From a virus (Duplodnaviria > Heunggongvirae > Uroviricota > Caudoviricetes): a stretch of DNA of 35,232 nucleotides. Shown piece after piece: positions 1 to 35,232 of the stretch. The stretch lies in the IMG/VR virus record IMGVR_UViG_2541047821_000009. One strand, given 5' to 3'. The notes under the pieces were generated by a model. The model was not told the origin of the DNA, searched no databases, and saw nothing but the letters and a program-made list of their open reading frames with translations. A program made the translations under genes and the position numbers. The stretch's first letter is position 1. The number at the start of each line of letters is the position of its first letter.

Positions 1-1011
1 TTATAACGTCACTCCGCCTTTTAGTGGATTCAGAGTGACGGCGTTCTGCAGGTAGTCAGGCGCAAGGTGCGCATAGGTCATTGTCTGCTGAATGCTCGCA
101 TGCCCCAGAATCTGTTGCAGTGCAATTATGTTGCCCCCATTCATCATGAAATGGCTTGCGAATGTATGCCGCAGAATGTGGGTTGCCTGATTGGGAGGTA
201 TATCAGGTTTCACTCTGCGTAAAATCCCGCAAAACTTCTCATAATCTACCTTGAACAATTTGGCGCTGGCCTCCTCTTTAACTTTTTTCTCCAGTTCCTC
301 AGAAATCGGCACTGTTCGCTTTTTACCGTTTTTGGTTTTCAGGAAGGTAACCCTGCAACTTGTAATCTGTGCTGGTTTTAGCGTGGCAACTTCCGTCCAT
401 CTTCCTCCAGTGCTCAGACATAAAAGCGCGACAAGTAAGTCATCACCAGTCAAAACATTTAGCAGTTTTTCGATTTCCGCTTTTTCCAGGAACGTCATTT
501 CAGGGTTAGCCTCCGTCAGTGGCGGCAGTCCGTGAATTGGGTGTTGCCCGGAAAATTCATCCAATTGAATTAATTTTGTGAACATGCCGGATAATCGGTA
601 CATGTCGCGGTTTATCGTTGCAGCACTGATGCCGTCACGTAGTCGCATGGAGCGATAATCCATCAAAGCCCTTTTGTTCATCCGACTCACTGGTATATCA
701 CCTATGCCGCTGATGGTTTTGAGCAGATGATTAAACTCTTTTGTCCCATGCTCGTGGTTTTGCCCGTGGTATTTCCACCAGATGTCGAGCAATTCTGTCA
801 AAGTTCGGCGGTCTGCTCGCTGGCCTCCCCATTCTTTCTGACTGGCATTGGCGATTGTGTATCGCTCAAATGCTAGTGCTTCAGCTTTTCTTTCAAATTT
901 CCTGCGGATGCGTTTTCCGTCGCGACCGCGAGGTCTAATGTCCACTTCATAGCGACCATCATCGAGCTTCTTAATTGCCATAAGAAAGCCCTCCGGCGCT
1001 GTATTCACCAT
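1..1011 (-). CDS. int: Tyrosine recombinase (P2-type integrase)
   Basis: 336-aa ORF; C-terminal box II 'ILRHTFASHF' and catalytic Tyr context 'TMTYAHL'; sits at the prophage end beside the C repressor as in P2; minus-strand stop codon at bases 1-3. Confidence 0.9.
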   Translation of the reverse strand: MVNTAPEGFLMAIKKLDDGRYEVDIRPRGRDGKRIRRKFERKAEALAFERYTIANASQKEWGGQRADRRTLTELLDIWWKYHGQNHEHGTKEFNHLLKTISGIGDIPVSRMNKRALMDYRSMRLRDGISAATINRDMYRLSGMFTKLIQLDEFSGQHPIHGLPPLTEANPEMTFLEKAEIEKLLNVLTGDDLLVALLCLSTGGRWTEVATLKPAQITSCRVTFLKTKNGKKRTVPISEELEKKVKEEASAKLFKVDYEKFCGILRRVKPDIPPNQATHILRHTFASHFMMNGGNIIALQQILGHASIQQTMTYAHLAPDYLQNAVTLNPLKGGVTL

Positions 1012-3236: not shown

Positions 3237-3511
3237 GTATTCGTATTGAAATTGGCGAACGTTATGTCGTTACCAGTGACAGCTTTCAGTTTATTCTCCA
3301 CGAGAAAAAGAGAGCGGAAAGCGGTAAAAACGCCGGTCAGGAGTGGCTGGCGGTGGTTGGTTATTACCCGAAATTAAGCCAGCTCGTTTCCGGTCTGATG
3401 CATCACGATATTCTGACCGGAAGCGCAAAGTCTTTTGCTGATTTAAACACGCAGGTTGAGCAGCTCAGCAAGCGTTGTTCAGAGGCGTTCTCCAGAGGAG
3501 CGTCTGAATGA
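3233..3511 (+). CDS. Hypothetical early protein (orf83 position)
   Basis: 92-aa ORF, coupled to neighbours. Confidence 0.5.
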   Translation: MSIRIEIGERYVVTSDSFQFILHEKKRAESGKNAGQEWLAVVGYYPKLSQLVSGLMHHDILTGSAKSFADLNTQVEQLSKRCSEAFSRGASE

Positions 3512-4515
3512 TTACTGATGCTCGTTGCCATACTGAAAATACCATCAATGTTATTTTTGTTTCAGGTGGAAAGGACAGCCTTGCTCAGTGGCTTGTCGCT
3601 ATTGAAGAAAATGTACCCATATTGCCGGTTTTTGCTGATACGGGACATGAACATCCACAGACAATGAAATATCTGGATTATCTGGAAAAACGGCTTGGCC
3701 CAATTAAAAGAGTCAGAGCTGATTTTTCCTGCCGGATTGAATCAAAGCGCAAGTTTATCCAGACCAAATGGCCTGATTTGTTGGTTAACGATTGTGGAAT
3801 GTCGGAAGAAGAAGCGCACCAGCGCATCAGTTGTGCGCTGGAAATTCTCAAACCAACGGGTATCCCGTTTCTTGATTTGTGTCTGTGGAAGGGGCGTTTC
3901 CCATCAACCAAAGCCAGATTTTGCACATTTGAACTGAAACATGAACCCGTGCGTTCTCAGGTAATCCTGCCTTTACTCAATGAATTTGAGGAAGTGATTA
4001 GCTGGCAGGGAGTGCGTGCTCAGGAATCGCCATCACGCGCAGCTTTACCTGTCTGGGAAGAGGATGCAGACAACACACCCGGATTGCATGTATATCGCCC
4101 GATTTTGCACTGGAAGCATGAAGATGTATTTGCAATAGCCAGAAGACATGACATTAAGCCAAATCCGTTATATCAGCAGGGGTGTGGCCGTGTTGGTTGT
4201 ATGCCATGTATTCATGTCCGTAAATCTGAACTGGCAGAAATTTTTCGCCGGTGGCCGGAGGAAATAAAGCGGGTTGCTGAATGGGAACGACTGGTTGCGT
4301 CGTGCTCCCGTCGGGGAAATTCCACTTTTTTCCCATCCACACATGATCCGCTACGCGCAGAACGTCGTATTGAGGTTGTAACAGTCGAGGCATACGGAAT
4401 TGAAACCTACCATGACTGGACAATGACAACGCGTGGGGGTACTCAGTTTGATTTACTGGCTTCGGCGAATGATAAAGCCGTTTGCAGTAGTGTCTATGCC
4501 GGTGTATGTGAATGA
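3508..4515 (+). CDS. PAPS-reductase / DndC-like PP-loop ATP pyrophosphatase family protein
   Basis: 335 aa; N-terminal PP-loop 'VIFVSGGKDS' (SGGxDS); C-terminal Cys cluster 'GCGRVGCMPC'; coupled to A (ATGA overlap). Confidence 0.7.
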   Translation: MITDARCHTENTINVIFVSGGKDSLAQWLVAIEENVPILPVFADTGHEHPQTMKYLDYLEKRLGPIKRVRADFSCRIESKRKFIQTKWPDLLVNDCGMSEEEAHQRISCALEILKPTGIPFLDLCLWKGRFPSTKARFCTFELKHEPVRSQVILPLLNEFEEVISWQGVRAQESPSRAALPVWEEDADNTPGLHVYRPILHWKHEDVFAIARRHDIKPNPLYQQGCGRVGCMPCIHVRKSELAEIFRRWPEEIKRVAEWERLVASCSRRGNSTFFPSTHDPLRAERRIEVVTVEAYGIETYHDWTMTTRGGTQFDLLASANDKAVCSSVYAGVCE

Positions 4516-6803: not shown

Positions 6804-7255
6804 TGGCAAAAATTCACGAGGTAAAGCTGCACGCTAAATATTTTGACCTTGTGCTGGAAGGAAAGAAACGCGCAGAGTTTCGGAAAAATGACCGTAATTA
6901 TGAGCGCGGGGACACGTTGATTTTGCATGAATGGGTACAGGGTGTGTATACGGGGCGAAAGGTTGAAGCCCGGATAACAGATGTTACTGACCTGTCAGAC
7001 TGGCTGGAAGATTATGTCTTGCTAAGTATTGAGCTGCTTAATACAGGCGCATATGAGACTGTGAACTGGAAAGAACTTAGTGAGCGTGGTCTGGTATTCA
7101 GAATTAATCATGAAATTATGCATCAGCTCGGCCTTGCTGTTATGTATGAACCAGAGACGGGGATGTCTGGCGGGGCAATGGTTGCCACGGATGGAGCATG
7201 GAACTATTCAGATGAACAGATGGAGCGTGCACAGCAAAACGGGTGGCTTGGATAA
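6800..7255 (+). CDS. ASCH (PUA-like) domain protein
   Basis: 'EGKKRAEFR' matches the ASCH G-K-x-x-E-x-R signature; ATG overlaps the A stop; first gene of the accessory locus. Confidence 0.6.
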   Translation: MMAKIHEVKLHAKYFDLVLEGKKRAEFRKNDRNYERGDTLILHEWVQGVYTGRKVEARITDVTDLSDWLEDYVLLSIELLNTGAYETVNWKELSERGLVFRINHEIMHQLGLAVMYEPETGMSGGAMVATDGAWNYSDEQMERAQQNGWLG

Positions 7256-7467
7256 TGCACAGAATACCAGGCGAGATACCGCACCATAAAACTAAAAATA
7301 TCAAGCTGATGGCTATTGTTCACCGTCTACAGCAGATTATGGTCAACGAAAATTTGACGCCTGATGAGCTAGTCGGGTGTGCCGAAATAGTCCGGGATAA
7401 TTACGGGCGACTTAACTATATCGGTATCGGTCAGTCCAGAGTTGCGCCACCACCACGTAGACGATAG
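7255..7467 (+). CDS. Hypothetical small protein
   Basis: ATG overlaps the ASCH stop (TAATG); 70 aa; no recognisable motif. Confidence 0.35.
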   Translation: MHRIPGEIPHHKTKNIKLMAIVHRLQQIMVNENLTPDELVGCAEIVRDNYGRLNYIGIGQSRVAPPPRRR

Positions 7468-7593
7468 AGAACGCCGCCAGTCGTGAAACTTGTTTTCAGG
7501 GCTGGCGGGGTTGAACAACGAGCGAAGCGAGGCGTTAGTTCAATCGATGATCATAAGCTTATGAGTTAAGCCTCGAGATTTTGTAGAAAGGGT

Positions 7594-7601
7594 TGTATAC
7601 T
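7594..7601 (+). promoter_or_regulatory. Candidate extended -10 element (TGTATACT) upstream of the methyltransferase
   Basis: TG-N-TATACT read directly; GGAG ribosome-binding site at 7617-7620 and ATG at 7626. Confidence 0.3.
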
Positions 7602-7625
7602 GGACATCGTATGGATCTGGAGTGA

Positions 7626-8651
7626 ATGATGATTGTAAAGGTGATAGACCTTTTTTGTGGTGCTGGCGGATTAACTCATGGTTTGCAACTCGCAGGTCTT
7701 GATGTCGTTGCTGGTATTGACCTTGAGGGGGAATGTCGATTTCCCTATGAAAAAAACAATAAATCAAAGTTTATTGAGAAAGATATCGCTAAAGTAACCA
7801 AAGAGGAATTACTGAAGCTATATGGTGATGCGTCTATAAAAGTATTGGCTGGATGTGCACCTTGCCAACCTTTTTCAAAATATACTCAAGGAAAAGATAA
7901 AGCGGAAGATAAAAAATGGCCTCTTCTTTATGAGTTCGAGCGTTTAATTCGCGAGGTATCTCCAGAAATTGTAACAATGGAGAACGTGCCTGATGTAACT
8001 AAACATAAAGTTTATAATGACTTTTATTGTTCGTTGTTAGAACTGGGATATTATGTTTGGGCATCAAAGGTTGATTGTGTCGAATATGGAATTCCACAGA
8101 ACCGTTCTCGTCATGTATTGTTAGCCTCAAAGTTGGGGGAGATTGAGTTAGTAAAACGTAATGATGTTATTTTGAAAACTGTTAGGGATGCAATAGGTGG
8201 CCTTCCACCATTAGAAGATGGTCAAACAGATCCAAATGATATATTGCATAGAGCCAGTAAATTAAACTCGATTAATAAAAAAAGAATTATACACTCTATT
8301 CCAGGTGGTACATGGAAGGACTGGCCGGAAGAACTTATTGCTGCTTGTCATATGAAGTCTAGCGGTAAAGGGTATGCTAGCGTATATGGGAGGATGTCTT
8401 GGGATAAGCCAAGCCCGACAATTACAACTCTTTGTTATGGTTTTGGGAATGGTCGTTTTGGCCACCCAGAACAGAACAGAGCTATTTCTCTTAGAGAAGC
8501 GGCTTTGTTGCAAACATTTCCTATGGATTATGTTTTTGTTGAAGAACAAGAAAAGTTTGTTATAAGAAGTATTGGAAAAATGATAGGTAATGCTGTGCCA
8601 GTTGAGTTAGGAAAAGTCATTGGGCAATCAATAAAAAATCATTTGAAATAA
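7626..8651 (+). CDS. DNA (cytosine-5)-methyltransferase
   Basis: Motif I 'LFCGAGG', motif IV 'GCAPCQPFS', motif VI 'TMENVPD', motif VIII 'QNRSRHVLLA', C-terminal 'GNAVPVELG'; AT-rich codon usage unlike the phage backbone. Confidence 0.85.
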   Translation: MMIVKVIDLFCGAGGLTHGLQLAGLDVVAGIDLEGECRFPYEKNNKSKFIEKDIAKVTKEELLKLYGDASIKVLAGCAPCQPFSKYTQGKDKAEDKKWPLLYEFERLIREVSPEIVTMENVPDVTKHKVYNDFYCSLLELGYYVWASKVDCVEYGIPQNRSRHVLLASKLGEIELVKRNDVILKTVRDAIGGLPPLEDGQTDPNDILHRASKLNSINKKRIIHSIPGGTWKDWPEELIAACHMKSSGKGYASVYGRMSWDKPSPTITTLCYGFGNGRFGHPEQNRAISLREAALLQTFPMDYVFVEEQEKFVIRSIGKMIGNAVPVELGKVIGQSIKNHLK

Positions 8652-8655
8652 TAAA

Positions 8656-8680
8656 ATGGCCTGCTTTGCAGGCCTTGTGA
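8656..8680. terminator. Bidirectional intrinsic terminator between convergent genes
   Basis: Hairpin GGCCTGC-ttt-GCAGGCC (8658-8674) flanked by an A-run upstream and a T-rich tract downstream. Confidence 0.55.
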
Positions 8681-9361
8681 TTATTTCTCTAAGTATTCAT
8701 TATTATTTATATAATGTTCTATATTATTCGCGATTGCATCAAGATAGGCTATTACTTCTAATGAAATATTCTCTAAATCCTGATATGAAACATTTTTCCC
8801 AATCTCAGCAAATGATACATTTCCATGAGATAAATCATTGCGATGTTGTTTAACAGTGGCTAACTTTTCACCATGTTTAGTGTGAGTGTAATCAGAATGG
8901 GTTGAAAATCCATATATTTTCGATTTTTCTTTTATTTCCTCTCTATCAATATTGCCTGAAAATATTTTCTTTTTGTTGAATGTACCATAAGAAATACCAC
9001 AGGATATGCCTTTAGTAAGTCCGTTGATTAAATTATCGATGTTAACAGATTCATTTTTTAATCTTTTTAAAATTTCTGATTTTAGGTTTTTTTTAAGTTT
9101 GTCAAACTCTATGTTTCTATCATAAATAGTCTCATGTATAAGGCAGATAGCCTCTCTCATTGTTGATTCAATAAGGTTGTATAATAGTATATATACTGCA
9201 CCCTTTAGAGTTTTTCGTGATTGAGATGTAATGGTGAACTTATGTTCTTTATTATCGGATGATATTAATTCCGCACCAGCATGCTCAATAAATTTTAAAA
9301 GATCTAAATAGGCCAAGATTTCTCCTGACCTTTCGTCAAAATCCTCACGAAAACGATCCAT
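8681..9361 (-). CDS. HEPN-like protein (putative RNase effector), partner of the DUF262 protein
   Basis: 226 aa; C-terminal 'QHRNDLSHG' fits the HEPN R-x(4-6)-H motif; its start is 1 nt from the stop of the upstream DUF262 gene. Confidence 0.5.
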   Translation of the reverse strand: MDRFREDFDERSGEILAYLDLLKFIEHAGAELISSDNKEHKFTITSQSRKTLKGAVYILLYNLIESTMREAICLIHETIYDRNIEFDKLKKNLKSEILKRLKNESVNIDNLINGLTKGISCGISYGTFNKKKIFSGNIDREEIKEKSKIYGFSTHSDYTHTKHGEKLATVKQHRNDLSHGNVSFAEIGKNVSYQDLENISLEVIAYLDAIANNIEHYINNNEYLEK

Positions 9362-9362
9362 G

Positions 9363-10505
9363 TTAATCCTCTAATAGTTTGTCTCGCACATATTCAATTC
9401 GTTCAATTACCTTCACGCGACTATTTGCTCCGTCGGAGGTGGTTAATTGTTTGAATTCTTCTGAGCTTAGCCAATCTAAGTTTTTGGGGACAAGGTTAGG
9501 CTCTAGACGTAATGCGAGTGCAGCACCAACAGCGAGAGATTCAAATCTAACTCGAGGTGTAGATTTTGCAGTGATAGTTTTCTTAAAGCCTGCTGGGAAA
9601 TGGTTTTCAACGAAAGACAGAACATTCGAAAACTCTTCTTTCATTGAGTTTTGTTCAGCTTCATCTATATTACTCTTTTCCTTCATGTAATCATTCAGAA
9701 AATCACGCACGGAATGATCAAATTTCTTATATTTATCTAAGTAGGCAAAGAATCTCAATGTAAATTCTAACCGTTCATCTCGTTTTTCTTTAGCCTCAGA
9801 TAAAGGTGCTAACTCCTTAAATTTAGATATTGTCGAGCATGGCTTAATAACCTGCGTATATAAATTTGTTGAGCCAAGTTCTGAACCTTTACGAACTTCC
9901 ATATCTTTCAATATGTCACTACCAGAGTTAATTCGCTCAAAAAGATCCCTGCGGGTTTCTTCATTGCATTTAGAACTCAACTCTATAACACGCACAGGAA
10001 TTCTCATGAAACGGCGTTGGCGTGATAATGGTAAATCTTGGAATCTGAAACCATTAAGAGAACTTAAAGATTTCAGATCTTGTAAAACTAATTCATTGTG
10101 GATAAACGCATGTATGGTTCTAACACGCTGTGAGCCATCAACAATTTCAATCCGTCCATCTAAATCGGGATCTTCTGAAAAGACATCAGCTGTAAATATA
10201 TATGGTATAGGGAAGCCCAAAATTAAAGACTCTATTAATCTTGATTGTCTCTTTTCATTCCAAACAAAGTCCCTTTGATAATCAGGAACAAAGAGTTCGT
10301 TGGTATCATCCTCTAACCCGTTATGATACTTATTAACTAATAACTCAACAGTAAATTCTTTGGTCTCAAAGTCAACATCCTTTTGCTCTGCGCGAATTTG
10401 CTCTTCAGCCTCTTGTTTTATAACTTCTAGCTGAGCTAGGAGTTCTGCCCTTTTTTTGGCATTATCTTCATGTTCTAGTTGAGATTTTAACCCAATAATA
10501 TCCAT
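9363..10505 (-). CDS. DUF262 (ParB/Srx-like, GmrS-type N-terminal domain) protein
   Basis: 380 aa; 'VPDYQRDFVW' and 'IVDGSQRVRTI' match the DUF262 signatures; no HNH/DUF1524 nuclease domain seen in the C-terminal half. Confidence 0.7.
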   Translation of the reverse strand: MDIIGLKSQLEHEDNAKKRAELLAQLEVIKQEAEEQIRAEQKDVDFETKEFTVELLVNKYHNGLEDDTNELFVPDYQRDFVWNEKRQSRLIESLILGFPIPYIFTADVFSEDPDLDGRIEIVDGSQRVRTIHAFIHNELVLQDLKSLSSLNGFRFQDLPLSRQRRFMRIPVRVIELSSKCNEETRRDLFERINSGSDILKDMEVRKGSELGSTNLYTQVIKPCSTISKFKELAPLSEAKEKRDERLEFTLRFFAYLDKYKKFDHSVRDFLNDYMKEKSNIDEAEQNSMKEEFSNVLSFVENHFPAGFKKTITAKSTPRVRFESLAVGAALALRLEPNLVPKNLDWLSSEEFKQLTTSDGANSRVKVIERIEYVRDKLLED

Positions 10506-10690
10506 ATCCAGATCCCTTAATGATTGTTATAAATGAAAACAGATAGCATACCGCATAGATCAGGAAAAATGCCATCGCATGCATGAATTTGCATGAGAGA
10601 AAGATTACCATTTGGGATTAGCTTTGCCAGTGCTGATGGGTTTTGGATTTTAATCATGTACTGCATCAAAACCGCCTCATGAAGCGGGCG

Positions 10691-10709
10691 GGCGAGGCGG
10701 GGAAAGCAC
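10691..10709. other. cos: cos site (19-nt cohesive-end sequence GGCGAGGCGGGGAAAGCAC)
   Basis: Exact 19-mer read at 10691-10709; matches the P2 cohesive-end sequence as recalled from memory; position immediately upstream of leftward Q is the P2 position. Confidence 0.55.
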
Positions 10710-10878
10710 TGCGCGCTGGCGGTGGTGCTGATTTTATTTTTTCAGCGTCTGAGCGCGTCGTGATGGCGTTTAGATTGTGCGCCGGGGCGTTGGTGTGTCT
10801 GCGGGGTGTTTTGTGCGGTGGTGAGCGTGTGAGGGCGTGATGACGGGGTGTAAAAAAGCCGCCCACAGGCGGCGATGT

Positions 10879-11913
10879 TCAGTCGTTGTCAGTGTCCAGT
10901 GAGTAGTTTTTAAAGCGGATGACTTCCTGACCGAGCCAGCCGTTTATTTCCCGAATCCTGTCCTGTAGCGGGATAAGCTCATTGCGGACAAAGACCTTTG
11001 CCACTTTCTCAATATCACCCAGCGACCCGACGTTCTCCGGCTTGCCGCCCATCAACTGAAAGGGGATGCGGTGCGCGTCCAGCAGGTCTGCGGCACTGGC
11101 TTTTTTGATATTAAAAAAATCGTCCTTCGTTGCCACTTCACTGAGCGGGATAATTTTAATGCCGTCAGCTTTCCCCTGCGGGGCATAGAGAAACAGATTT
11201 TTAAAGTTGTTGCGGCCTTTCGACTTCACCATGTTTTCGCGAAGCATTTCGATATCGTTGCGATCCTGCACGGCATCGGTGACGTACATGATGTATCCGG
11301 CATGTGCGCCATTTTCGTAATATTTGCGGCGGAACAGCGTGGCCGACTCATTCAGCCAGGCAGAATTAAGGGCGCTGAGATATTCCGGCAGGCCGTACAG
11401 CTCCTGATTAATATCCGGCTCCAGCAGGTGAAACACGGAGCCGGGCGCGAAAGGTGTCGGCTCGTTAAAGGACGGCACCCACCAGTAAACATCCTCTTCC
11501 ACACCACGGCGGGTATATTTTGCCGGTGAGGTTTCCAGCCTGATAACTTTACCGGTGGTGCTGTAACGCTTTTCCAGAAACGCATTACCGAACACCAGAA
11601 AATCCAGCACAAAGCGGCTGAAATCCTGCTGGGAAAGCCACGGGTGCGGAATAAACGTTGAAGCCAGAATATTACGTTTGACGTAAATCGGTGAGCTGTG
11701 ATGTACGGCAGCACGCAGGCTTTTTGCCAGACCGGTAAAGCTGACCGGTGGCTCATACCATCTGCCGTTACTGATGCACTCGACGTAATCCAGAATGTCA
11801 CGGCGGTCGAGTACCGGCACCGGCTCACCAAAGGTGAATGCCTCCATTTTCGGGGCCCTGGCGGTCATTGTTTTCACCGCTGGCTGCGGTGTTTTCCCTT
11901 TTTTCTTGCTCAT
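10879..11913 (-). CDS. Q: Portal protein (gpQ)
   Basis: 344 aa, same as P2 Q; next to cos and the terminase gene. Confidence 0.9.
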   Translation of the reverse strand: MSKKKGKTPQPAVKTMTARAPKMEAFTFGEPVPVLDRRDILDYVECISNGRWYEPPVSFTGLAKSLRAAVHHSSPIYVKRNILASTFIPHPWLSQQDFSRFVLDFLVFGNAFLEKRYSTTGKVIRLETSPAKYTRRGVEEDVYWWVPSFNEPTPFAPGSVFHLLEPDINQELYGLPEYLSALNSAWLNESATLFRRKYYENGAHAGYIMYVTDAVQDRNDIEMLRENMVKSKGRNNFKNLFLYAPQGKADGIKIIPLSEVATKDDFFNIKKASAADLLDAHRIPFQLMGGKPENVGSLGDIEKVAKVFVRNELIPLQDRIREINGWLGQEVIRFKNYSLDTDND

Positions 11914-13685
11914 CAGTAAAACTCCAGAATGGTGGATGTCAGCGGGGTGCTGATACCGGCGGTGAGTGGCTCATTTAACAGGGCGTGCATGGTCGCCCAG
12001 GCGAGGTCGGCGTGGCTGGCTTCCTCGCTGCGGCTGGCCTCATAGGTGGCGCTGCGTCCGCTGCTGGTCATGGTCTTGCGGATAGCCATAAACGAGCTGG
12101 TGATGTCGGTGGCGCTGACGTCATATTCCAGACAGCCACGGCGGATAACGTCTTTTGCCTTGAGCACCATTGCGGTTTTCATTTCCGGCGTGTAGCGGAT
12201 ATCGCGCGCGGCAGGATAGAACGAGCGCACGAGCTGGAACACGCCGACACCGAGGCCGGTGGCATCAATACCGATGTATTCGACGTTGTATTTTTCGGTG
12301 AGTTTGCGGATGGATTCAGCCTGGGTGGCAAAGTCCATGCCTTTCCACTGGTGACGCTCAAGTATTCTGAATTTGCCACCGGCCACCACCGGCGGTGCCA
12401 GTACCACGCATCCGGCGCTGTCGCCACGGTGTGACGGGTCGTAACCAATCCATACCGGGCGGGAGCCGAACGGATTGGCGGCAAACGGCGCATAGTCTTC
12501 CCATTCTTCCAGCGTGTCGACCATGCAGCGTTGCAGCTCCTCGAACGGGAACACCGACGCCTTGTCGTCAACAAATTCACACATGAACAGGTTTTTAAAA
12601 TCGTCGGCGCTGTTTTCACGTTTGAGCTGCTCAATGTCGAACAGCGTGCAGCCACCTTTCAGGGCGTCCTCAATGGTGACAATCTGCCGCCACTGGCCGT
12701 CCGCACAGAGAAGACCTCCGGCAAGGGCGTTATGACTGACGTCGATTTCCACGCGTTCGGCGGCGCTGGCGCGTCCCCGGTTGAACAGTTCACCCGACCA
12801 GAACGGGTAGGCGTCGTGCGCCAGCGTGGACGGGGTGGAGAAATAGGTCGAGCGCAGGTGACTCTGTGAGGCCATACCTGATGCCACCTTACGCAGTACC
12901 TGAAAATTCGGGATCCAGAAAATCTCGTCGACGTACAGGTCGCCGTTATGGCTCTGTGCGGTGTTGGAGTTGGTGCCGAGAAAAATCAGTTTTGCGCCGT
13001 TATTGCCCAGGACAATCGGGTCACCGGTCAGGTCAACGTCAACCAGCCGGGCAAAGGCGATGATGTATTCACGGAACACATACGCCTGCGTTTTACTGGC
13101 CGACAGAAAAATCTGGTTATGGCCGGTTTTCAGGGCGCGCAGCAGCGCCTCGCGGGAAAAATAAAACGTTGCGCCAATCTGGCGGGATTTCAGGATATCG
13201 CGGATGCGGTGCTCAAGCCCGGCGCGATACCAGTGCAACTGATAGTCGAAAGACTGCTCAAAGAAAATCTGCTCCAGCTTTTCGATGGCCTCGTCACTGA
13301 AAAAATTCTTTTTCGGTTTGCGGCGTTCGCCTTTGTTGCGGTTAGCGACGTTCGGATTAAGGTCTGCCTCGTTGCCGGTCTGGCTGTAGCGGTTGACCCG
13401 TGCCAGTCGTTCAATCTGGCGTCCGAGCAGGTCAATTTCCTTGAAGTCACCGCCGGTTTTCTGCGGTTTGATGATGAGCTGGGTCAGCCGCGCTTCCAGA
13501 CTCATTTCGACACGGCTGATGGGGGCAACGCTGTCCCAGCCGTCGCGCTGTTTCCAGCTCTGCACCGTCGGGCGTTTCATCTGCAACATGGCGGCAATCT
13601 GCGGCACGGAAAACCCCTGCCAGTACAGCAGCGCCGCCTGACGACGCGGGTCGTGTAAAAGAGTGGTGTCTGTGGTGATGGTCAT
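11913..13685 (-). CDS. P: Terminase large subunit (gpP)
   Basis: Start at internal Met (MTITTDTT...) gives 590 aa as in P2 P; N-terminal HTH-like region. Confidence 0.85.
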   Translation of the reverse strand: MTITTDTTLLHDPRRQAALLYWQGFSVPQIAAMLQMKRPTVQSWKQRDGWDSVAPISRVEMSLEARLTQLIIKPQKTGGDFKEIDLLGRQIERLARVNRYSQTGNEADLNPNVANRNKGERRKPKKNFFSDEAIEKLEQIFFEQSFDYQLHWYRAGLEHRIRDILKSRQIGATFYFSREALLRALKTGHNQIFLSASKTQAYVFREYIIAFARLVDVDLTGDPIVLGNNGAKLIFLGTNSNTAQSHNGDLYVDEIFWIPNFQVLRKVASGMASQSHLRSTYFSTPSTLAHDAYPFWSGELFNRGRASAAERVEIDVSHNALAGGLLCADGQWRQIVTIEDALKGGCTLFDIEQLKRENSADDFKNLFMCEFVDDKASVFPFEELQRCMVDTLEEWEDYAPFAANPFGSRPVWIGYDPSHRGDSAGCVVLAPPVVAGGKFRILERHQWKGMDFATQAESIRKLTEKYNVEYIGIDATGLGVGVFQLVRSFYPAARDIRYTPEMKTAMVLKAKDVIRRGCLEYDVSATDITSSFMAIRKTMTSSGRSATYEASRSEEASHADLAWATMHALLNEPLTAGISTPLTSTILEFY

Positions 13686-13858
13686 GAATACCTCGCCGTG
13701 ATGAATACACGGCAAGGCTACTGAGTCGCGCCCCGCGATTCGCTAAGGTGCTGTTGTGTCAGTGATAAGCCATCCGGGACTGATGGCGGAGGATGCGCAT
13801 CGTCGGGAAACTGATGCCGACATGTGACTCCTCTAATCACTATTCAGGACTCCTGACA
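13686..13858. promoter_or_regulatory. Divergent late-promoter region between P (leftward) and O (rightward)
   Basis: Only non-coding gap between the divergent P and O operons; by analogy with P2 it should hold Ogr-dependent late promoters; I could not confidently identify the TGT-N12-ACA activator site by eye. Confidence 0.3.
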
Positions 13859-15848: not shown

Positions 15849-16592
15849 ATGACGAGTCCCGCACAGCGCCACATGATGCGGGTCTCGGCAGCGATGACCG
15901 CGCAGCGGGACGCCGCCCCGCTGCGACATGCAACTGTCTATGAGCAGATGCTGGTTAAGCTGGCCGCAGACCAGCGCACACTGAAAGCGATTTATTCAAA
16001 AGAGCTGAAGGCCGCAAAAAAACGCGAACTGCTGCCGTTCTGGTTGCCGTGGGTGAACGGCGTGCTGGAGCAGGGCAAAGGTGCACAGGATGACATTCTG
16101 ATGACGGTCATGCTGTGGCGTCTGGATACCGGCGATATTGCCGGTGCGCTGGAGATTGCCCGTTATGCCCTGAAGTACGGTCTGACCATGCCGGGTAAAC
16201 ACCGCCGTACCCCGCCGTACATGTTCACCGAGGAGGTGGCGCTTGCGGCCATGCGCGCTCACGCTGCCGGTGAGTCTGTGGATACCCGCCTGCTGACGGA
16301 CACCCTTGAACTGACCGCCACGGCTGACATGCCTGATGAAGTGCGCGCAAAGCTGCACAAAATCACCGGTCTGTTTCTGCGTGACACCGGTGATGCCGCC
16401 GGTGCGCTGGCGCACCTGCAACGTGCGACACAGCTCGACTGTCAGGCAGGCGTCAAAAAAGAGATTGAACGACTGGAGCGGGAGCTGAAACCGAAGCCGG
16501 AGCCGCAGCCCAAAGCGGCCACCCGCGCCCCGCGTAAGACACGGAGCGTGACACCGGCAAAACGTGGACGCCCGAAAAAGAAAGCCAGTTAA
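15849..16592 (+). CDS. M: Terminase small subunit (gpM)
   Basis: 247 aa as in P2 M; basic Lys/Arg/Pro-rich C-terminal tail. Confidence 0.85.
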   Translation: MTSPAQRHMMRVSAAMTAQRDAAPLRHATVYEQMLVKLAADQRTLKAIYSKELKAAKKRELLPFWLPWVNGVLEQGKGAQDDILMTVMLWRLDTGDIAGALEIARYALKYGLTMPGKHRRTPPYMFTEEVALAAMRAHAAGESVDTRLLTDTLELTATADMPDEVRAKLHKITGLFLRDTGDAAGALAHLQRATQLDCQAGVKKEIERLERELKPKPEPQPKAATRAPRKTRSVTPAKRGRPKKKAS

Positions 16593-20059: not shown

Positions 20060-20125
20060 TTGTGCCATTCCCGACACCTCATCGTCACATTGCCGCCGGT
20101 ATGACCCGGCGGCATCCTTCCCGTT

Positions 20126-20761
20126 ATGAACACTCTCGCAAATATTCAGGAACTCGCGCGCGCACTGCGCAACATGATACGCCCTGGCATTATCGTCGAA
20201 ACCGACCTTAACGCCGGTCGCTGCCGTGTGCAGACCGGCGGCATGTGCACTGACTGGCTGCAGTGGCTGACCCATCGCGCCGGGCGTTCGCGCACATGGT
20301 GGGCACCTTCCGTGGGGGAGCAGGTGCTGATTCTGGCCGTGGGTGGTGAACTCGACACGGCGTTCGTTCTGCCGGGGATTTATTCCGGCGATAACCCTGC
20401 GCCGTCTGCGTCGGCGGATGCCCTGCATATCCGTTTCCCTGACGGGGCGGTGATTGAGTATGAACCTGAAACCAGTGCACTCACGGTAAGCGGAATTAAA
20501 ACGGCCAGCGTGACGGCTTCTGATTCTGTTACTGCCACGGTGCCGGTGGTCATGGTGAAAGCGTCAACCCGCATCACCCTGGACACACCGGAGGTGGTCT
20601 GCACCAACAGGCTGATTACCGGCACGCTGGAAGTGCAGAAGGGCGGGACGATGCGCGGCAACATTGAACACACCGGCGGTGAACTCTCATCAAACGGTAA
20701 GGTACTGCATACCCATAAACACCCCGGCGACAGCGGCGGCACAACCGGGGGACCTCTATGA
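20126..20761 (+). CDS. V: Baseplate spike / central fibre (gpV)
   Basis: 211 aa as in P2 V. Confidence 0.85.
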   Translation: MNTLANIQELARALRNMIRPGIIVETDLNAGRCRVQTGGMCTDWLQWLTHRAGRSRTWWAPSVGEQVLILAVGGELDTAFVLPGIYSGDNPAPSASADALHIRFPDGAVIEYEPETSALTVSGIKTASVTASDSVTATVPVVMVKASTRITLDTPEVVCTNRLITGTLEVQKGGTMRGNIEHTGGELSSNGKVLHTHKHPGDSGGTTGGPL

Positions 20762-22551: not shown

Positions 22552-25305
22552 ATGAGCACGAAATTTAAAACCGTTATCACTACTGCCGGAGCCGCGAAGC
22601 TGGCAGCCGCCACTGTTCCCGGCGGGAAAAAAGTAAACCTGTCTGCAATGGCCGTGGGTGACGGTAATGGCAAATTGCCGGTGCCGGATGCCGGTCAGAC
22701 GAAACTGGTGCATGAGGTCTGGCGTCATGCCCTGAATAAAGTCAGCGTGGATAACAAGAATAAAAACTATATCGTGGCTGAACTGGTTGTACCGCCCGAA
22801 GTGGGCGGCTTCTGGATGCGTGAGCTTGGTCTGTATGACGATGCCGGAACACTGATTGCGGTATCCAACATGGCAGAAAGCTATAAGCCAGAACTGGCTG
22901 AAGGCTCCGGACGTGCGCAGACCTGCCGCATGGTTATTATTCTCAGCAACGTGGCGTCCGTTGAGCTGAGTATTGATGCCAGCACAGTGATGGCGACGCA
23001 GGATTACGTCGATGACAAAATCGCAGAGCATGAGCAGTCCCGCCGCCATCCTGACGCCACGCTGACAGAAAAAGGTTTTACTCAGTTAAGCAGTGCAACA
23101 AACAGCACCAGTGAAAAGCTGGCGGCAACGCCAAAAGCGGTCAAGGCAGCAAATGACAACGCAAATTCACGTCTGGCGAAAAATCAGAACGGTGCAGATA
23201 TCCAGGATAAATCAGCTTTTCTGGACAATATTGGTGTTACCAGCCTGACGTTTATGAAAAACAACGGCGAAATGCCGGTTGATGCTGATCTGAATACGTT
23301 TGGTCCTGTTAAAGCTTATTCAGGTATCTGGTCTAAAGCAACATCCACCAACGCAACACTGGAGAAAAACTTCCCTGAAGATAATGCTGTCGGTGTGCTT
23401 GAGGTTTTTACTGGCGGCAATTTTGCAGGCACGCAACGCTATACCACACGTGACGGAAATTTGTATATCCGCAAACTCATTGGAACATGGAATGGTAATG
23501 ATGGACCATGGGGAACATGGCGCCATGTTCAGGCTGTAACGCGGGCTCTAAGTAAGACCATTGACCTTAACTCTCTCGGTGGCGCAGAACATTTAGGTCT
23601 ATGGAGAAACAGCAGTTCAGCAATAGCTTCTTTTGAACGACATTACCCCGAGCAGGGAGGAGACGCGCAGGGCATTCTGGAAATTTTCGAAGGTGGGCTA
23701 TATGGACGCACACAGCGTTATACAACCCGTAACGGGACTATGTATATTCGCGGCCTGACAGCCAAATGGGATGCAGAAAATCCACAGTGGGAAGACTGGA
23801 TCCAAATTGGTTATCAGACCAGTAGTACCTTCTATGAGGATGACCTGGATGATTTGATGTCTCCGGGTATTTACAGTGTGACAGGCAAAGCGACCCACGC
23901 CCCAATCCAGGGGCAGTCTGGTTTTCTGGAAGTCATCAGGCGCAAGGATGGTGTCTATGTTTTGCAACGTTACACGACCACAGGAACCAGCGCAGCTACA
24001 AAAGACCGTTTATATGAGCGAGTGTTTCTTGGTGGCTCATTTAACGCGTGGGGGGAGTGGCGACAGATTTATAACTCAAACTCTTTGCCGTTAGAGTTGG
24101 GTATCGGTGGCGCAGTGGCAAAACTCACCAGCCTGGACTGGCAGACATACGATTTTGTGCCGGGCAGTCTGATAACCGTTCGGCTGGATAACATGACCAA
24201 TATTCCCGACGGTATGGACTGGGGCGTCATTGATGGCAACCTGATAAACATCTCAGTCGGTCCGAGTGATGATTCTGGTTCGGGACGCTCAATGCATGTA
24301 TGGCGCAGCACTGTAAGTAAAGCCAACTACCGCTTTTTTATGGTGCGTATTTCAGGAAATCCGGGAAGCCGCACGATTACAGCAAGACGAGTACCAATCA
24401 TTGACGAAGCCCAGACATGGGGCGCGAAACAGACATTCAGTGCTGGCCTTTCTGGTGAACTGTCCGGCAATGCGGCGACAGCAACAAAGCTGAAAACAGC
24501 CCGTAAAATTAATAACGTTTCGTTTGATGGAACATCAGATATTAACCTGACGCCGAAAAATATTGGTGCATTTGCTTCAGGAAAAACAGGAGACACCGTT
24601 GCGAATGATAAAGCCGTTGGGTGGAACTGGAGTAGCGGAGCCTATAACGCAACTACTGGTGGGGCATCAACGTTAATTCTTCATTTTAATATCGGTGAAG
24701 GAAGTTGTCCCGCCGCCCAGTTCCGCGTTAATTATAAGAACGGCGGTATTTTTTATCGTTCTGCTCGTGACGGTTACGGATTCGAGGCTGACTGGTCTGA
24801 GTTTTATACCACAACGCGAAAACCTACAGCGGGAGATGTCGGTGCACTGCCGTTATCTGGTGGTCAATTGAATGGTGCTCTGGGTATAGGAACATCCAGT
24901 GCTCTTGGCGGTAATTCGATTGTTTTGGGTGATAATGACACGGGCTTTAAACAAAATGGTGATGGTAATCTGGATGTTTATGCTAATAGCGTCCATGTTA
25001 TGCGCTTTGTCTCGGGAAGTATTCAAAGTAATAAAACCATAAATATTACGGGGCGTGTTAATCCCTCGGATTACGGTAACTTTGATTCCCGCTATGTCCG
25101 GGATATCCGGCTTGGTGGTGCTGCCACATACAAACCTGCGAACAATGGCATGACATGGACACATCAGGCACCGTCCGGGTGTGTATATTCCGGCATTATT
25201 GTTCAGGATACCGGCTCAAACTCTGCCGATAACATTGGTGGTGTATATTACAGACCGGTTCAGAAATACATTAACGGGACATGGTATAACGTGGCGCAGG
25301 TATAA
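22552..25305 (+). CDS. H: Tail fibre protein (gpH) with expanded variable C-terminal region
   Basis: 917 aa, longer than P2 H (about 669 aa); three tandem ~45-aa repeats of a 'TQRYTTR(D/N)G..YIR...W...W' motif in the middle; Gly-rich distal region. Confidence 0.85.
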   Translation: MSTKFKTVITTAGAAKLAAATVPGGKKVNLSAMAVGDGNGKLPVPDAGQTKLVHEVWRHALNKVSVDNKNKNYIVAELVVPPEVGGFWMRELGLYDDAGTLIAVSNMAESYKPELAEGSGRAQTCRMVIILSNVASVELSIDASTVMATQDYVDDKIAEHEQSRRHPDATLTEKGFTQLSSATNSTSEKLAATPKAVKAANDNANSRLAKNQNGADIQDKSAFLDNIGVTSLTFMKNNGEMPVDADLNTFGPVKAYSGIWSKATSTNATLEKNFPEDNAVGVLEVFTGGNFAGTQRYTTRDGNLYIRKLIGTWNGNDGPWGTWRHVQAVTRALSKTIDLNSLGGAEHLGLWRNSSSAIASFERHYPEQGGDAQGILEIFEGGLYGRTQRYTTRNGTMYIRGLTAKWDAENPQWEDWIQIGYQTSSTFYEDDLDDLMSPGIYSVTGKATHAPIQGQSGFLEVIRRKDGVYVLQRYTTTGTSAATKDRLYERVFLGGSFNAWGEWRQIYNSNSLPLELGIGGAVAKLTSLDWQTYDFVPGSLITVRLDNMTNIPDGMDWGVIDGNLINISVGPSDDSGSGRSMHVWRSTVSKANYRFFMVRISGNPGSRTITARRVPIIDEAQTWGAKQTFSAGLSGELSGNAATATKLKTARKINNVSFDGTSDINLTPKNIGAFASGKTGDTVANDKAVGWNWSSGAYNATTGGASTLILHFNIGEGSCPAAQFRVNYKNGGIFYRSARDGYGFEADWSEFYTTTRKPTAGDVGALPLSGGQLNGALGIGTSSALGGNSIVLGDNDTGFKQNGDGNLDVYANSVHVMRFVSGSIQSNKTINITGRVNPSDYGNFDSRYVRDIRLGGAATYKPANNGMTWTHQAPSGCVYSGIIVQDTGSNSADNIGGVYYRPVQKYINGTWYNVAQV

Positions 25306-25836: not shown

Positions 25837-26057
25837 GTTGTATGATCTCTGGAGTGAGCAAACATATCTATGGCACAGAGTAAAGCCTAATCTGACAGGC
25901 CGCTCTGTGTCTGGAGTAGATTTTAGTAAAGCATTATTTTATTAGTGCAAATTCTAATCAATACATTTTATGTATATGATATCCTGCAGACTTTAATGAC
26001 TTGGTTTAGGCTAACCAGATAACACTGAAGGAATATTTTTGATAATTAAGGTGCGGT

Positions 26058-26651
26058 ATGTTTACTAAGCGACGATTAAAAAATATTAACTGGGAGGCAA
26101 GTTCAGTGATTCTTGCTATGGTTCTCTTTGTTGGAAATATATTTTATACAAATCATCGTGATGATATAACTATGGAGGCTGAGAGGGACAGTATCAGAAC
26201 AATGTTTGCATATGAAATCGCTAATAACCATCGCGCTCTCACTTTTCTTGATAAAACGAGATATATTGGCTTTGACGAAAATTCGGAGCATTTTGTTGGC
26301 GAGCCTTTTGCCATTAATGTCAAATCATTAGGGGGGCCTCGCTTACAGATTGCATTAAACCAGACTGATAAAGTGTTTAAATCCTACTTCAGCGAATTAA
26401 GTAAGCTTGATAAAGAGGATGTTACTCTTCTTATGGACTATTACCATGAGCAAAGCATCCTGCTGGAGCGTGTAAAATCTACGTTACAGAAGATGAAAAG
26501 TGGTAATGATATTAAAGTTGATATTGATGGTTACTTATTAGAAGAACACTTCATGAATGAGCTTAATCTTTCTAATATTTTGCTTAAACGCTATAGCCAT
26601 TTGTTGTCACAACACGCCAAAGAACATAAAACAAAAGATTTACATAATTGA
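26058..26651 (+). CDS. Membrane-anchored hypothetical protein at the Z/fun-equivalent locus
   Basis: 197 aa; AAGGTG ribosome-binding site; N-terminal transmembrane helix 'SSVILAMVLFVGNIFY'; strongly AT-rich; no recognisable domain. Confidence 0.6.
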   Translation: MFTKRRLKNINWEASSVILAMVLFVGNIFYTNHRDDITMEAERDSIRTMFAYEIANNHRALTFLDKTRYIGFDENSEHFVGEPFAINVKSLGGPRLQIALNQTDKVFKSYFSELSKLDKEDVTLLMDYYHEQSILLERVKSTLQKMKSGNDIKVDIDGYLLEEHFMNELNLSNILLKRYSHLLSQHAKEHKTKDLHN

Positions 26652-26857
26652 TAATCTGCTAATGGTTATTCATGGGGTAACTATGTTTTATATGTAATCC
26701 AACTCAGATGAATTATTGATTCTGGATAATAACCGCAGAGCGGTATATACCATGACAGGCAAATGTCCGCTTCTTGTTCAAAGCAGACCGTCAGATTTGA
26801 TAACTTTTGGGCTATGTAAATTGTCAGTCGGAAAATGAGTGAGTTCAAATCAGGACA

Positions 26858-33365: not shown

Positions 33366-33584
33366 ATGTTTCATTGTCCTTTATGCCAGCATGCCGCACA
33401 TGCGCGTACAAGCCGCTATATCACTGACACGACAAAAGAGCGTTATCACCAGTGCCAGAACGTGAATTGCAGCGCCACGTTCATCACCTATGAGTCGGTA
33501 CAGCGATACATCGTGAAGCCGGGAGAAGTCCACGCCGTAAGGCCGCACCCGTTGCCGTCAGGGCAGCAAATTATGTGGATGTAA
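33366..33584 (+). CDS. ogr: Late-gene transcriptional activator Ogr (zinc finger)
   Basis: Internal Met 'MFHCPLCQHAAHARTSRYI...HQCQNVNCSATF' gives 72 aa with a C2C2 zinc-binding motif, as in P2 Ogr. Confidence 0.8.
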   Translation: MFHCPLCQHAAHARTSRYITDTTKERYHQCQNVNCSATFITYESVQRYIVKPGEVHAVRPHPLPSGQQIMWM

Positions 33585-33596
33585 TTACAAACAGAA

Positions 33597-33634: not shown

Positions 33635-34042
33635 TTACTTACCTGTGTAGGTATGAGTTTTGGATAACACCACTGTTTGTGCAGGTTTTTCCATTAACGG
33701 AGCGATTTCATTGCATGTGGTCAATGGGTCTTCAAAGGTATATCCAATAGACTTATATTGGTTAACTATATTGATTTCACTTACATTTTTTAAAAATGAA
33801 GAAGGAGCGTCATGTGTCCAGAGTGGGGTGCATACACCGGACATAATTAAATGATTATAGGCTTCTGATGTGATTTTTTTAGCAGGGAGAACAACGGTAA
33901 GAGAGCTATCTTTTGTTGTGATTTCCAGTGGTTGCCATGGTTTCAGTTGTTTTTGAAGAGTTTTAATGTCATTCGTGTTTGCGTATGCATTGAGTGAAAT
34001 TATTAAGGTGGTTATTGCCATTATTGATTTAAGAGTTGCCAT
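33635..34042 (-). CDS. Secreted hypothetical protein (signal peptide)
   Basis: 135 aa; N-terminal signal peptide 'MATLKSIMAITTLIISLNAYA' with an AYA-N cleavage-like site; strongly AT-rich. Confidence 0.5.
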   Translation of the reverse strand: MATLKSIMAITTLIISLNAYANTNDIKTLQKQLKPWQPLEITTKDSSLTVVLPAKKITSEAYNHLIMSGVCTPLWTHDAPSSFLKNVSEINIVNQYKSIGYTFEDPLTTCNEIAPLMEKPAQTVVLSKTHTYTGK

Positions 34043-34248: not shown

Positions 34249-34329
34249 ATCCTCAATTTGCCTGCTGCTTAATGCATTGCAGATGATTTGCTTCCGTTAT
34301 ACTAGCGTCAGTTGATAGCGGGAGTATTT

Positions 34330-35232
34330 ATGAATCAATCTTATGGACGGCTGGTCAGTCGGGCGGCGATTGCTGCAACGGCGATGGCTTCACTGCTATT
34401 GCTGATTAAAATTTTTGCATGGTGGTATACCGGGTCGGTGAGTATTCTCGCCGCGCTGGTGGATTCGCTGGTGGATATCGGCGCGTCGTTGACGAATTTA
34501 CTGGTGGTGCGATATTCCCTGCAACCTGCCGACGATAATCACTCGTTTGGTCACGGTAAAGCTGAGTCCCTCGCGGCGCTGGCGCAAAGTATGTTTATCT
34601 CCGGTTCGGCACTATTCCTCTTTTTGACGGGTATTCAACATCTGATATCTCCAACACCGATGACAGATCCAGGCGTCGGGGTTATCGTGACAATTGTGGC
34701 GCTAATTTGTACGATTATCCTTGTCTCGTTTCAGCGGTGGGTGGTGCGCCGGACGCAAAGCCAGGCGGTGCGGGCTGATATGCTACATTACCAGTCTGAT
34801 GTTATGATGAACGGCGCAATTCTGCTGGCGCTGGGGTTGTCCTGGTACGGCTGGCATCGCGCCGATGCTCTGTTTGCATTGGGAATCGGCATCTATATTT
34901 TATATAGCGCGTTACGCATGGGATATGAGGCGGTACAGTCATTACTGGATCGCGCATTACCTGATGAGGAACGGCAAGAAATTATTGATATCGTGACTTC
35001 CTGGCCGGGTGTTAGCGGCGCTCACGATCTTCGCACGCGGCAGTCAGGGCCGACCCGCTTTATTCAGATTCATTTGGAAATGGAAGACTCTCTGCCTTTG
35101 GTTCAGGCACATATGGTGGCGGATCAGGTAGAGCAGGCTATTTTACGGCGTTTTCCGGGATCGGATGTGATTATCCATCAGGACCCCTGTTCCGTCGTAC
35201 CCAGGGAGGGTAAACGGTCTATGCTTTCATAA
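34330..35232 (+). CDS. fieF: Cation diffusion facilitator family ferrous-iron/zinc efflux transporter FieF (YiiP)
   Basis: Start at '[20 protein letters not shown]' gives 300 aa; multiple transmembrane helices and a cytoplasmic C-terminal domain; recognised as enterobacterial FieF; host gene. Confidence 0.85.

Follow-up and report, generated by a model that had tools for sequence, protein, structure and literature searches.

A predicted P2-type cos site in an integrated, apparently complete Peduovirus prophage

The cos gap and its surroundings

The window, by which we mean the whole 35,232-nucleotide stretch of DNA that was analyzed, contains a non-coding gap bounded by the start codon of a leftward DUF262 gene (position 10505) and by the stop codon of the portal gene Q (position 10879). 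A 19-nucleotide sequence, GGCGAGGCGGGGAAAGCAC, is located in this gap at positions 10691–10709 on the plus strand. The distance from the 19-mer to the gene Q stop codon is 169 bp, and the terminator tQ lies in between, which is the same placement as that of the P2 cos site. The cos of P2-type phages lies in non-coding DNA that has the variable A-to-Q cargo locus on one side and, beyond tQ, the 3′ end of gene Q on the other, and this is the arrangement observed here. An earlier reading of this DNA, made from its letters alone and hereafter called the sequence-only reading, had assigned cos to a GC-rich gap between an accessory island and gene Q. This placement is confirmed, since the G+C content is 61% at 10661–10878 compared with 37% in the island (7024–10660).

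Most of the DNA between the 19-mer and gene Q consists of a non-coding right arm of the cos region (10717–10857) that is specific to the P2 lineage in alignments. The right arm extends for ~140 bp up to tQ and is ~95% identical to P2, whereas its identity to P4 and 186 is ~45–47%. The entire ~170 bp from cos up to gene Q likewise matches P2 at ~95%. The intrinsic terminator tQ (10858–10873, minus strand), which ends the leftward P–Q operon, is composed of a hairpin and a T-run and aligns with the annotated tQ of P2 (160–181). When a stretch containing the cos region was used as a query, matches were found in 2154 of 5426 complete E. coli genomes.

Two short ORFs span cos, one on the plus strand (10643–10840, 65 aa, TTG start) and one on the minus strand (10666–10866, 66 aa, GTG start). 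In P2, the counterparts of both have their frames broken by 1-nt indels near 10793 and 10836, and the minus-strand frame also encounters a stop codon. No CDS is annotated in bases 1–186 of the P2 record NC_001895, and in a related E. coli prophage RefSeq likewise leaves this gap without a CDS. The proposal that the short ORFs at cos are spurious is therefore well supported, and they should not be called as genes.

The genes to the right encode the packaging machinery. Gene Q (10879–11913, minus strand; Pfam Phage_portal) specifies a portal protein that shares 340 of 344 residues with P2 gpQ. The large terminase gene P (11913–13685, minus strand; Pfam Terminase_6N, Terminase_6C and Terminase_5) yields a product identical to P2 gpP at 589 of 590 residues; the ATG at 13685 gives this 590-aa protein, and the ORF list extends the frame to a TTG at 13715. 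The small terminase gene M is found at 15849–16592 on the plus strand (Pfam Phage_term_smal), and its product agrees with P2 gpM at 243 of 247 residues. Genes Q, P, O, N and M follow the P2 order, encode proteins with 98–99.8% identity to their P2 counterparts, and lack internal stops. Thus, the cognate gpM, gpP and gpQ are all encoded in cis by intact genes. Because the terminase is nearly identical to that of P2, it can be expected to cleave a site that has the P2 sequence.

An integrase is encoded at the left end of the window (1–1011) and a host fieF-type cation-efflux gene at its right end (34312–35232), which shows that the phage is integrated. Within the first 25 kb, approximately 80% of the sequence can be aligned to sequenced Peduovirus phages, at ~96% identity. 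Alignment to the complete P2 genome shows collinearity at 97.7% identity for the segment spanning the 19-mer to gene S inclusive, with P2 base 1 as its exact starting point. The window retains the whole set of essential P2 genes, none of them interrupted by a stop codon (Q, P, O, N, M, L, X, Y, K, R, S, V, W, J, I, the N-terminal part of H, G, FI, FII, E, T, U, D, ogr, B and A), and the sole absences are of non-essential genes (orf30, fun(Z), tin and old). The window therefore holds an integrated P2-type (Peduovirus) prophage that is apparently complete. We estimate that its packaged genome is roughly 34 kb in length, with attL located outside the window.

To the left of cos, homology breakpoints relative to P2 delimit a variable cargo island (7024–10660) that replaces tin and old, and its maximal right limit abuts the conserved cos core. 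Pfam matches identify its cargo as a C5 cytosine methyltransferase (7626–8651, plus strand), a HEPN nuclease-like protein of the MAE_28990 type (8681–9361, minus strand), and a DUF262/GmrSD_N protein (9363–10505, minus strand). The last of these is matched in PADLOC by NsnA (3e-55) and PD-T4-2_A (7e-35), whereas the MAE_28990-type HEPN protein has no PADLOC match. The DUF262 and HEPN genes form a two-gene leftward operon that converges on the plus-strand methyltransferase gene. A GmrSD-like protein beside a methyltransferase is an odd pairing, and the GmrSD family includes modification-dependent nucleases. The trio of methyltransferase, HEPN and DUF262 genes was found at the same locus in one E. 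coli prophage, and the junction between the DUF262 gene and cos is present at ~86% identity in eight complete E. coli genomes. The island sits in a known cos-adjacent defense hotspot of P2-like phages, the gpA–gpQ (A-to-Q) locus described by Rousset et al. (2022; PMC9122126).

The cos site had also been proposed to define the right border of the island. Homology with P2, P4 and 186 begins ~30 bp to the left of the 19-mer, near 10661, and a relative that is 97.9% identical and carries a different island diverges exactly at 10660. For these two reasons, the border must be located at least 30 bp to the left of the 19-mer. The proposal thus needs correction: the border falls at 10660, against the left edge of the cos core, and not at the 19-mer itself. 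The conserved TGCAT repeats at 10580–10594 suggest that cos-associated sequence extends ~110 bp further to the left.

The 19-mer and the conserved core

The sequence GGCGAGGCGGGGAAAGCAC at 10691–10709 is the sole match in the window on either strand, even when up to three mismatches are allowed. None of 100 dinucleotide-preserving shuffles of the window gave a match, and an exact 19-mer is expected to occur by chance only ~2.6e-7 times in 35,232 nucleotides. In the P2 record NC_001895, bases 1–19 are annotated as 'cosL; left cohesive end' and bases 33575–33593 as 'cosR; right cohesive end'; each consists of the same 19 nucleotides as the window sequence. Bases 1–19 of the satellite P4 (NC_001609) are also identical. 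The sequence-only reading had recognized the 19-mer as the P2 cohesive end, and both this identity and the location given for the string prove to be correct.

Other types of cohesive end fit the window less well. The 19-mer of 186 and PSP3, which represents the 186-type (Eganvirus) end, is GGCGTGGCGGGGAAAGCAT and differs from that of the window by two mismatches. A comparison with the published P2 and 186 cos sequences, which had been put forward as a check, therefore gives 19/19 matches with P2 and 17/19 with 186 and assigns the site to the P2/P4 (Peduovirus) type rather than to the 186 type. The 12-nt cohesive end of lambda, GGGCGGCGACCT, finds its best matches in the window with two mismatches each, and these fall inside tail genes.

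Sequence conservation extends beyond the 19-mer. To measure conservation per column, we anchored loci from IMG/VR on the exact 19-mer. The sample consisted of 120 independent phage and satellite loci, 114 of them unique and used for the column counts, and locus types were assigned by tblastn. A P2-type portal gene was detected at 93 of the 120 loci (median 176 bp to the right) and the P4 gene psu at 20 (median 167 bp to the left), whereas seven loci were unclassified. Across the 114 unique loci, a sharp block of conservation extends from ~10656–10661 to 10716. An ungapped alignment of the window with P2, P4 and 186 reveals a common core of the same extent (~56 bp; 10661–10716, plus strand), which consists of 30 bp to the left of the cut that include a TGCAT at 10662–10666, the 19-mer, and TGCGCGC on the right.

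This core is identical to that of P2 at 53 of 56 positions. The three differences (10667, 10677 and 10679 by alignment) all fall within the left half, and their positions are variable in phages and satellites known to be packaged; P2 and P4 themselves differ there. The exact 56-bp core of the window is absent from the 120 sampled loci, among which there are 67 distinct cores. The segment 10661–10716, which agrees with the conservation block, corresponds to the published '55-bp' cos core common to P2 and P4, which is attributed to Ziermann and Calendar (1990) in passages of PMC9594776, PMC2231350 and PMC5694545. The recognition site is thus predicted to be larger than the 19-mer, comprising the ~56-bp core and probably also the TGCAT repeats described below.

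Within the core, positions 10672–10687 resemble a terminator on the minus strand, with a hairpin and a T-run pointing leftward to the island. We evaluated the palindromic CCGC...GCGG of this element as a hairpin or leftward terminator. By inspection, the stem exhibits no compensatory changes in either pairing register among the 120 loci, and this interpretation was dropped. The lack of compensatory changes suggests that CCGC...GCGG is probably recognized by a protein as sequence rather than acting as a structure.

The resemblance to known cos systems is closest for P2 (NC_001895/AF063097), which shares with the window the 19-mer, most of the core, the right arm, tQ, the Q–P and O–N–M operons and the A-to-Q hotspot. 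P2 differs in carrying tin and old instead of methyltransferase, HEPN and DUF262 genes, in the three left-half core positions, and in having an integration and immunity module of another type. P4 has the identical 19-mer, a ~55-bp core and TGCAT repeats at the same offsets, and it is packaged by the P2 terminase (PMC9122126, PMC2231350). In contrast to the window, P4 has psu on the left and gop on the right, no structural genes, and a right arm that is unrelated beyond ~7 bp past the cut. The Eganviruses 186 and PSP3 likewise have a 19-nt 5′ cohesive end, the core, TGCAT repeats and a portal gene (W/Q) ~180 bp to the right, but their flanks are only ~45–62% identical to those of the window.

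TGCAT repeats to the left of the core

Two exact copies of TGCAT are located to the left of the core at 10580–10584 and 10590–10594, in addition to the copy inside the core (10662–10666, offset −29 from the cut). Together they form a TGCAT-N5-TGCAT dyad (10580–10594, plus strand) at offsets of −111 and −101, which we consider a putative accessory cos element on the basis of its positional enrichment. A candidate third copy, which is degenerate, is found at ~10571–10580. Both copies of the dyad, within 1 bp of −111 and −101, are present in all 17 unique satellite flanks and in 51 of 76 unique phage flanks, against a background of ~0.01 per offset. The dyad and the core TGCAT at −29, together with an additional copy around −120 to −129, are also found in P2, P4, 186, PSP3 and Ralstonia phage RSA1; the last of these has a different cohesive end and yet retains the TGCAT repeats. 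In phiCTX, TGCAG and CGCAG repeats take the place of TGCAT, and 'R repeats' and an IHF site are already marked near cos in its record. The ~65-bp spacer between dyad and core (10595–10660) has low per-column conservation, whereas the motifs that flank it are held at fixed offsets, which indicates that its length is constrained across loci. This phased TGCAT feature, located ~100–110 bp from the cut on the right-end side, was derived in the present analysis and is not a published criterion; the window exhibits it.

The terminase of lambda makes staggered nicks at a nicking site that is flanked by binding repeats. By analogy with lambda cosB, the TGCAT repeats may be accessory cos elements that serve as binding sites for terminase or for a host factor. 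The lambda cos (cosQ–cosN–cosB) resembles the present site in outline, with staggered terminase nicks, flanking accessory repeats and 5′ cohesive ends (PMC7617512). It differs in having a 12-nt end of unrelated sequence, and the two terminases belong to different families (P2-type gpM/gpP versus lambda Nu1/A). Moreover, concatemers are the packaging substrate of lambda, whereas closed circles are favored by P2 and P4 (PMC2231350).

The packaging signal of the P2 family could conceivably include a cosB-like array of TGCAT repeats with 10-bp phase, placed ~100–125 bp from the cut on its right-end side and separated from the core by a spacer of fixed length and free sequence, although we regard this extended signal as speculative and rather unlikely. 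It would be new only if the primary cos literature holds no prior description, and it may already be described there. A literature search for gpM or gpP binding sites in P2 cos gave nothing relevant, and a paper on lateral transduction states only that this process is not carried out by cos phages.

The dyad was also considered as a promoter-upstream element of the leftward cargo operon. In P2, it is located just upstream of the −35 element inferred for the old–tin promoter. This explanation is made less likely by the satellites, which keep the dyad at the same offset even though psu reads toward cos and no such promoter is expected there.

If the TGCAT repeats are indeed binding sites for terminase or a host factor, then the real inner boundary of the cargo hotspot would lie at them, and the array would be the element that P4-like satellites must copy for packaging. 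The freely exchangeable cargo would then be suggested to end near 10570 if the repeats belong to cos. A population-level map of the constrained positions (the core, the TGCAT repeats and the spacer of fixed length) could be of use in designing minimal P2/P4 cosmids.

Genome ends, alternative readings and other departures from P2

Several virion-derived genome records begin at the equivalent of position 10691, namely those of HQ103, VB-YPM-4, S164, fiAA91-ss (where the start is annotated as cosL), Wphi, R18C and P24A7b. In other records (P2, L-413C and vB_YpM_476B), the last base corresponds to position 10709. The records of 186 and PSP3 state 'top strand cut at 5' end and bottom strand cut at 3' end', which implies 5′-protruding ends. 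It is a strong inference from these sequence comparisons that 10691–10709 marks the vegetative genome ends of the prophage. This assignment would fix base 1 of the vegetative genome at window position 10691 and make 10709 the last base of the right end. Cleavage by terminase in the present prophage would accordingly be predicted to leave 5′-protruding ends of 19 nt.

Published work on P2 and P4 provides a framework for how the site might function. The two have their cos signal in common, and the terminase that P4 relies on is that of P2 (PMC9122126). Both are packaged preferentially from closed circles, and cleavage generates 19-nt cohesive ends (PMC2231350). When cos was replaced in a P2 lysogen, phage progeny were abolished but cosmids bearing cos were still packaged (PMC9942202). 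In the proposed mechanism, gpM and gpP would recognize cos on circular phage DNA after excision and replication, and the recognized region would include the core (10661–10716) and probably also the TGCAT repeats (10580–10594). Two nicks would be introduced 19 nt apart, one in the top strand between 10690 and 10691 (5′ of G10691) and the other in the bottom strand between 10709 and 10710 (after C10709). Strand separation would then yield a linear genome with complementary 5′-protruding ends of 19 nt, which would enter the procapsid by way of the gpQ portal. Once the DNA had been injected into a new cell, its ends could anneal and be ligated, thereby restoring the present sequence. In the integrated state, the site would be silent, located ~10.7 kb inside the prophage. 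For this prophage, we infer the cleavage, the overhang polarity, the use of circles as packaging substrate and the role of TGCAT.

Given these data, 10691–10709 can very likely be assigned as the cos of a P2-type (Peduovirus) prophage that is integrated and apparently complete. Such a site is already known, being a textbook feature of a common prophage family, and its assignment here reveals nothing new about packaging biology.

One alternative explanation is that the site is a genuine cos by descent that is never used, a relic in a prophage that is defective or fails to excise. P2-type prophages are classically not SOS-inducible, which is compatible with this scenario. In addition, int, C and cox are only 45–52% identical to those of P2, attL lies beyond the window, and the exact 56-bp core was not seen among the 120 sampled loci. 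Against this, all essential genes are undisrupted; Q, P, M, N and O remain 98–99.8% identical to their P2 counterparts without internal stops. The 19-mer and right arm are intact as well, and the three core differences fall at positions that are variable in packaged elements. We therefore consider an unused relic improbable.

Since P4 has the identical 19-mer and core, and the cos of 186 is only two bases different, the site could in principle be that of a P4-like satellite or a 186-type (Eganvirus) phage instead of a P2-type helper. A P4-like satellite would carry psu/sid/delta to one side of cos and its cargo and int to the opposite side, and would have no structural genes. The window instead has P2-type Q and P directly to the right of the site and a full set of P2 structural genes. 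No homologues of psu or sid were found in the window, and the sole P4 match is that of delta to ogr, a known paralogue. The right arm (95% identity to P2 versus ~45–47% to P4 and 186) and the two mismatches with the 186/PSP3 19-mer also argue against an origin in either kind of element, which the gene content of the window already refutes and which we judge to be exceedingly unlikely. An equally slight chance is assigned to the notion that the match is fortuitous, or that the stretch between the island and gene Q is mainly another element, such as a terminator or a regulatory region. The terminator-like hairpin and T-run on the minus strand (10687–10672) are in keeping with the latter idea, as is the location of the region upstream of the leftward operon of the island; P2 old–tin transcripts start ~150 bp to the left of cos. 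Yet the stem shows no compensatory pattern by inspection of the 120 loci, and the same core occurs in P4 satellites amid entirely different genes, which argues for a packaging role rather than locus-specific regulation. A coincidental match is countered by the very low chance expectation and by the shuffled sequences, none of which contained the 19-mer. The P2-type cos assignment is therefore retained.

Several other regions of the prophage depart from P2. The integration and immunity module (1–1750) encodes proteins that are 52% (Int), 45% (C) and 46% (Cox) identical to those of P2, and a repressor ORF of up to 158 aa is possible, compared with 99 aa in P2. Between the orf83 homologue and replication gene A, a plus-strand gene (3508–4515) encodes a 335-aa protein with a PAPS-reductase domain for which P2 has no counterpart at this location. 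The second cargo locus of P2, Z/fun, is replaced by DNA of ~37% GC (25900–26770), and a 197-aa protein encoded there (26058–26651, plus strand) has no Pfam match. A 135-aa ORF of low GC content (33635–34042, minus strand) is located between the ogr terminator and the fieF-type gene; its product has a hydrophobic, signal-peptide-like N-terminus and no Pfam match, and it is a candidate for either phage cargo beside attR or host DNA. The non-essential P2 orf30 (786 bp, between S and V) is cleanly missing, which leaves an S-to-V gap of ~65 bp (20061–20126). Finally, the tail-fiber gene H (22552–25305, plus strand) encodes 917 aa versus 669 aa in P2, and its resemblance to P2 is confined to the first ~207 residues (84% identity). 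For the assembly protein G, identity to the P2 counterpart is 74%, and the H/G segment is by its sequence a presumptive chimeric host-range module.
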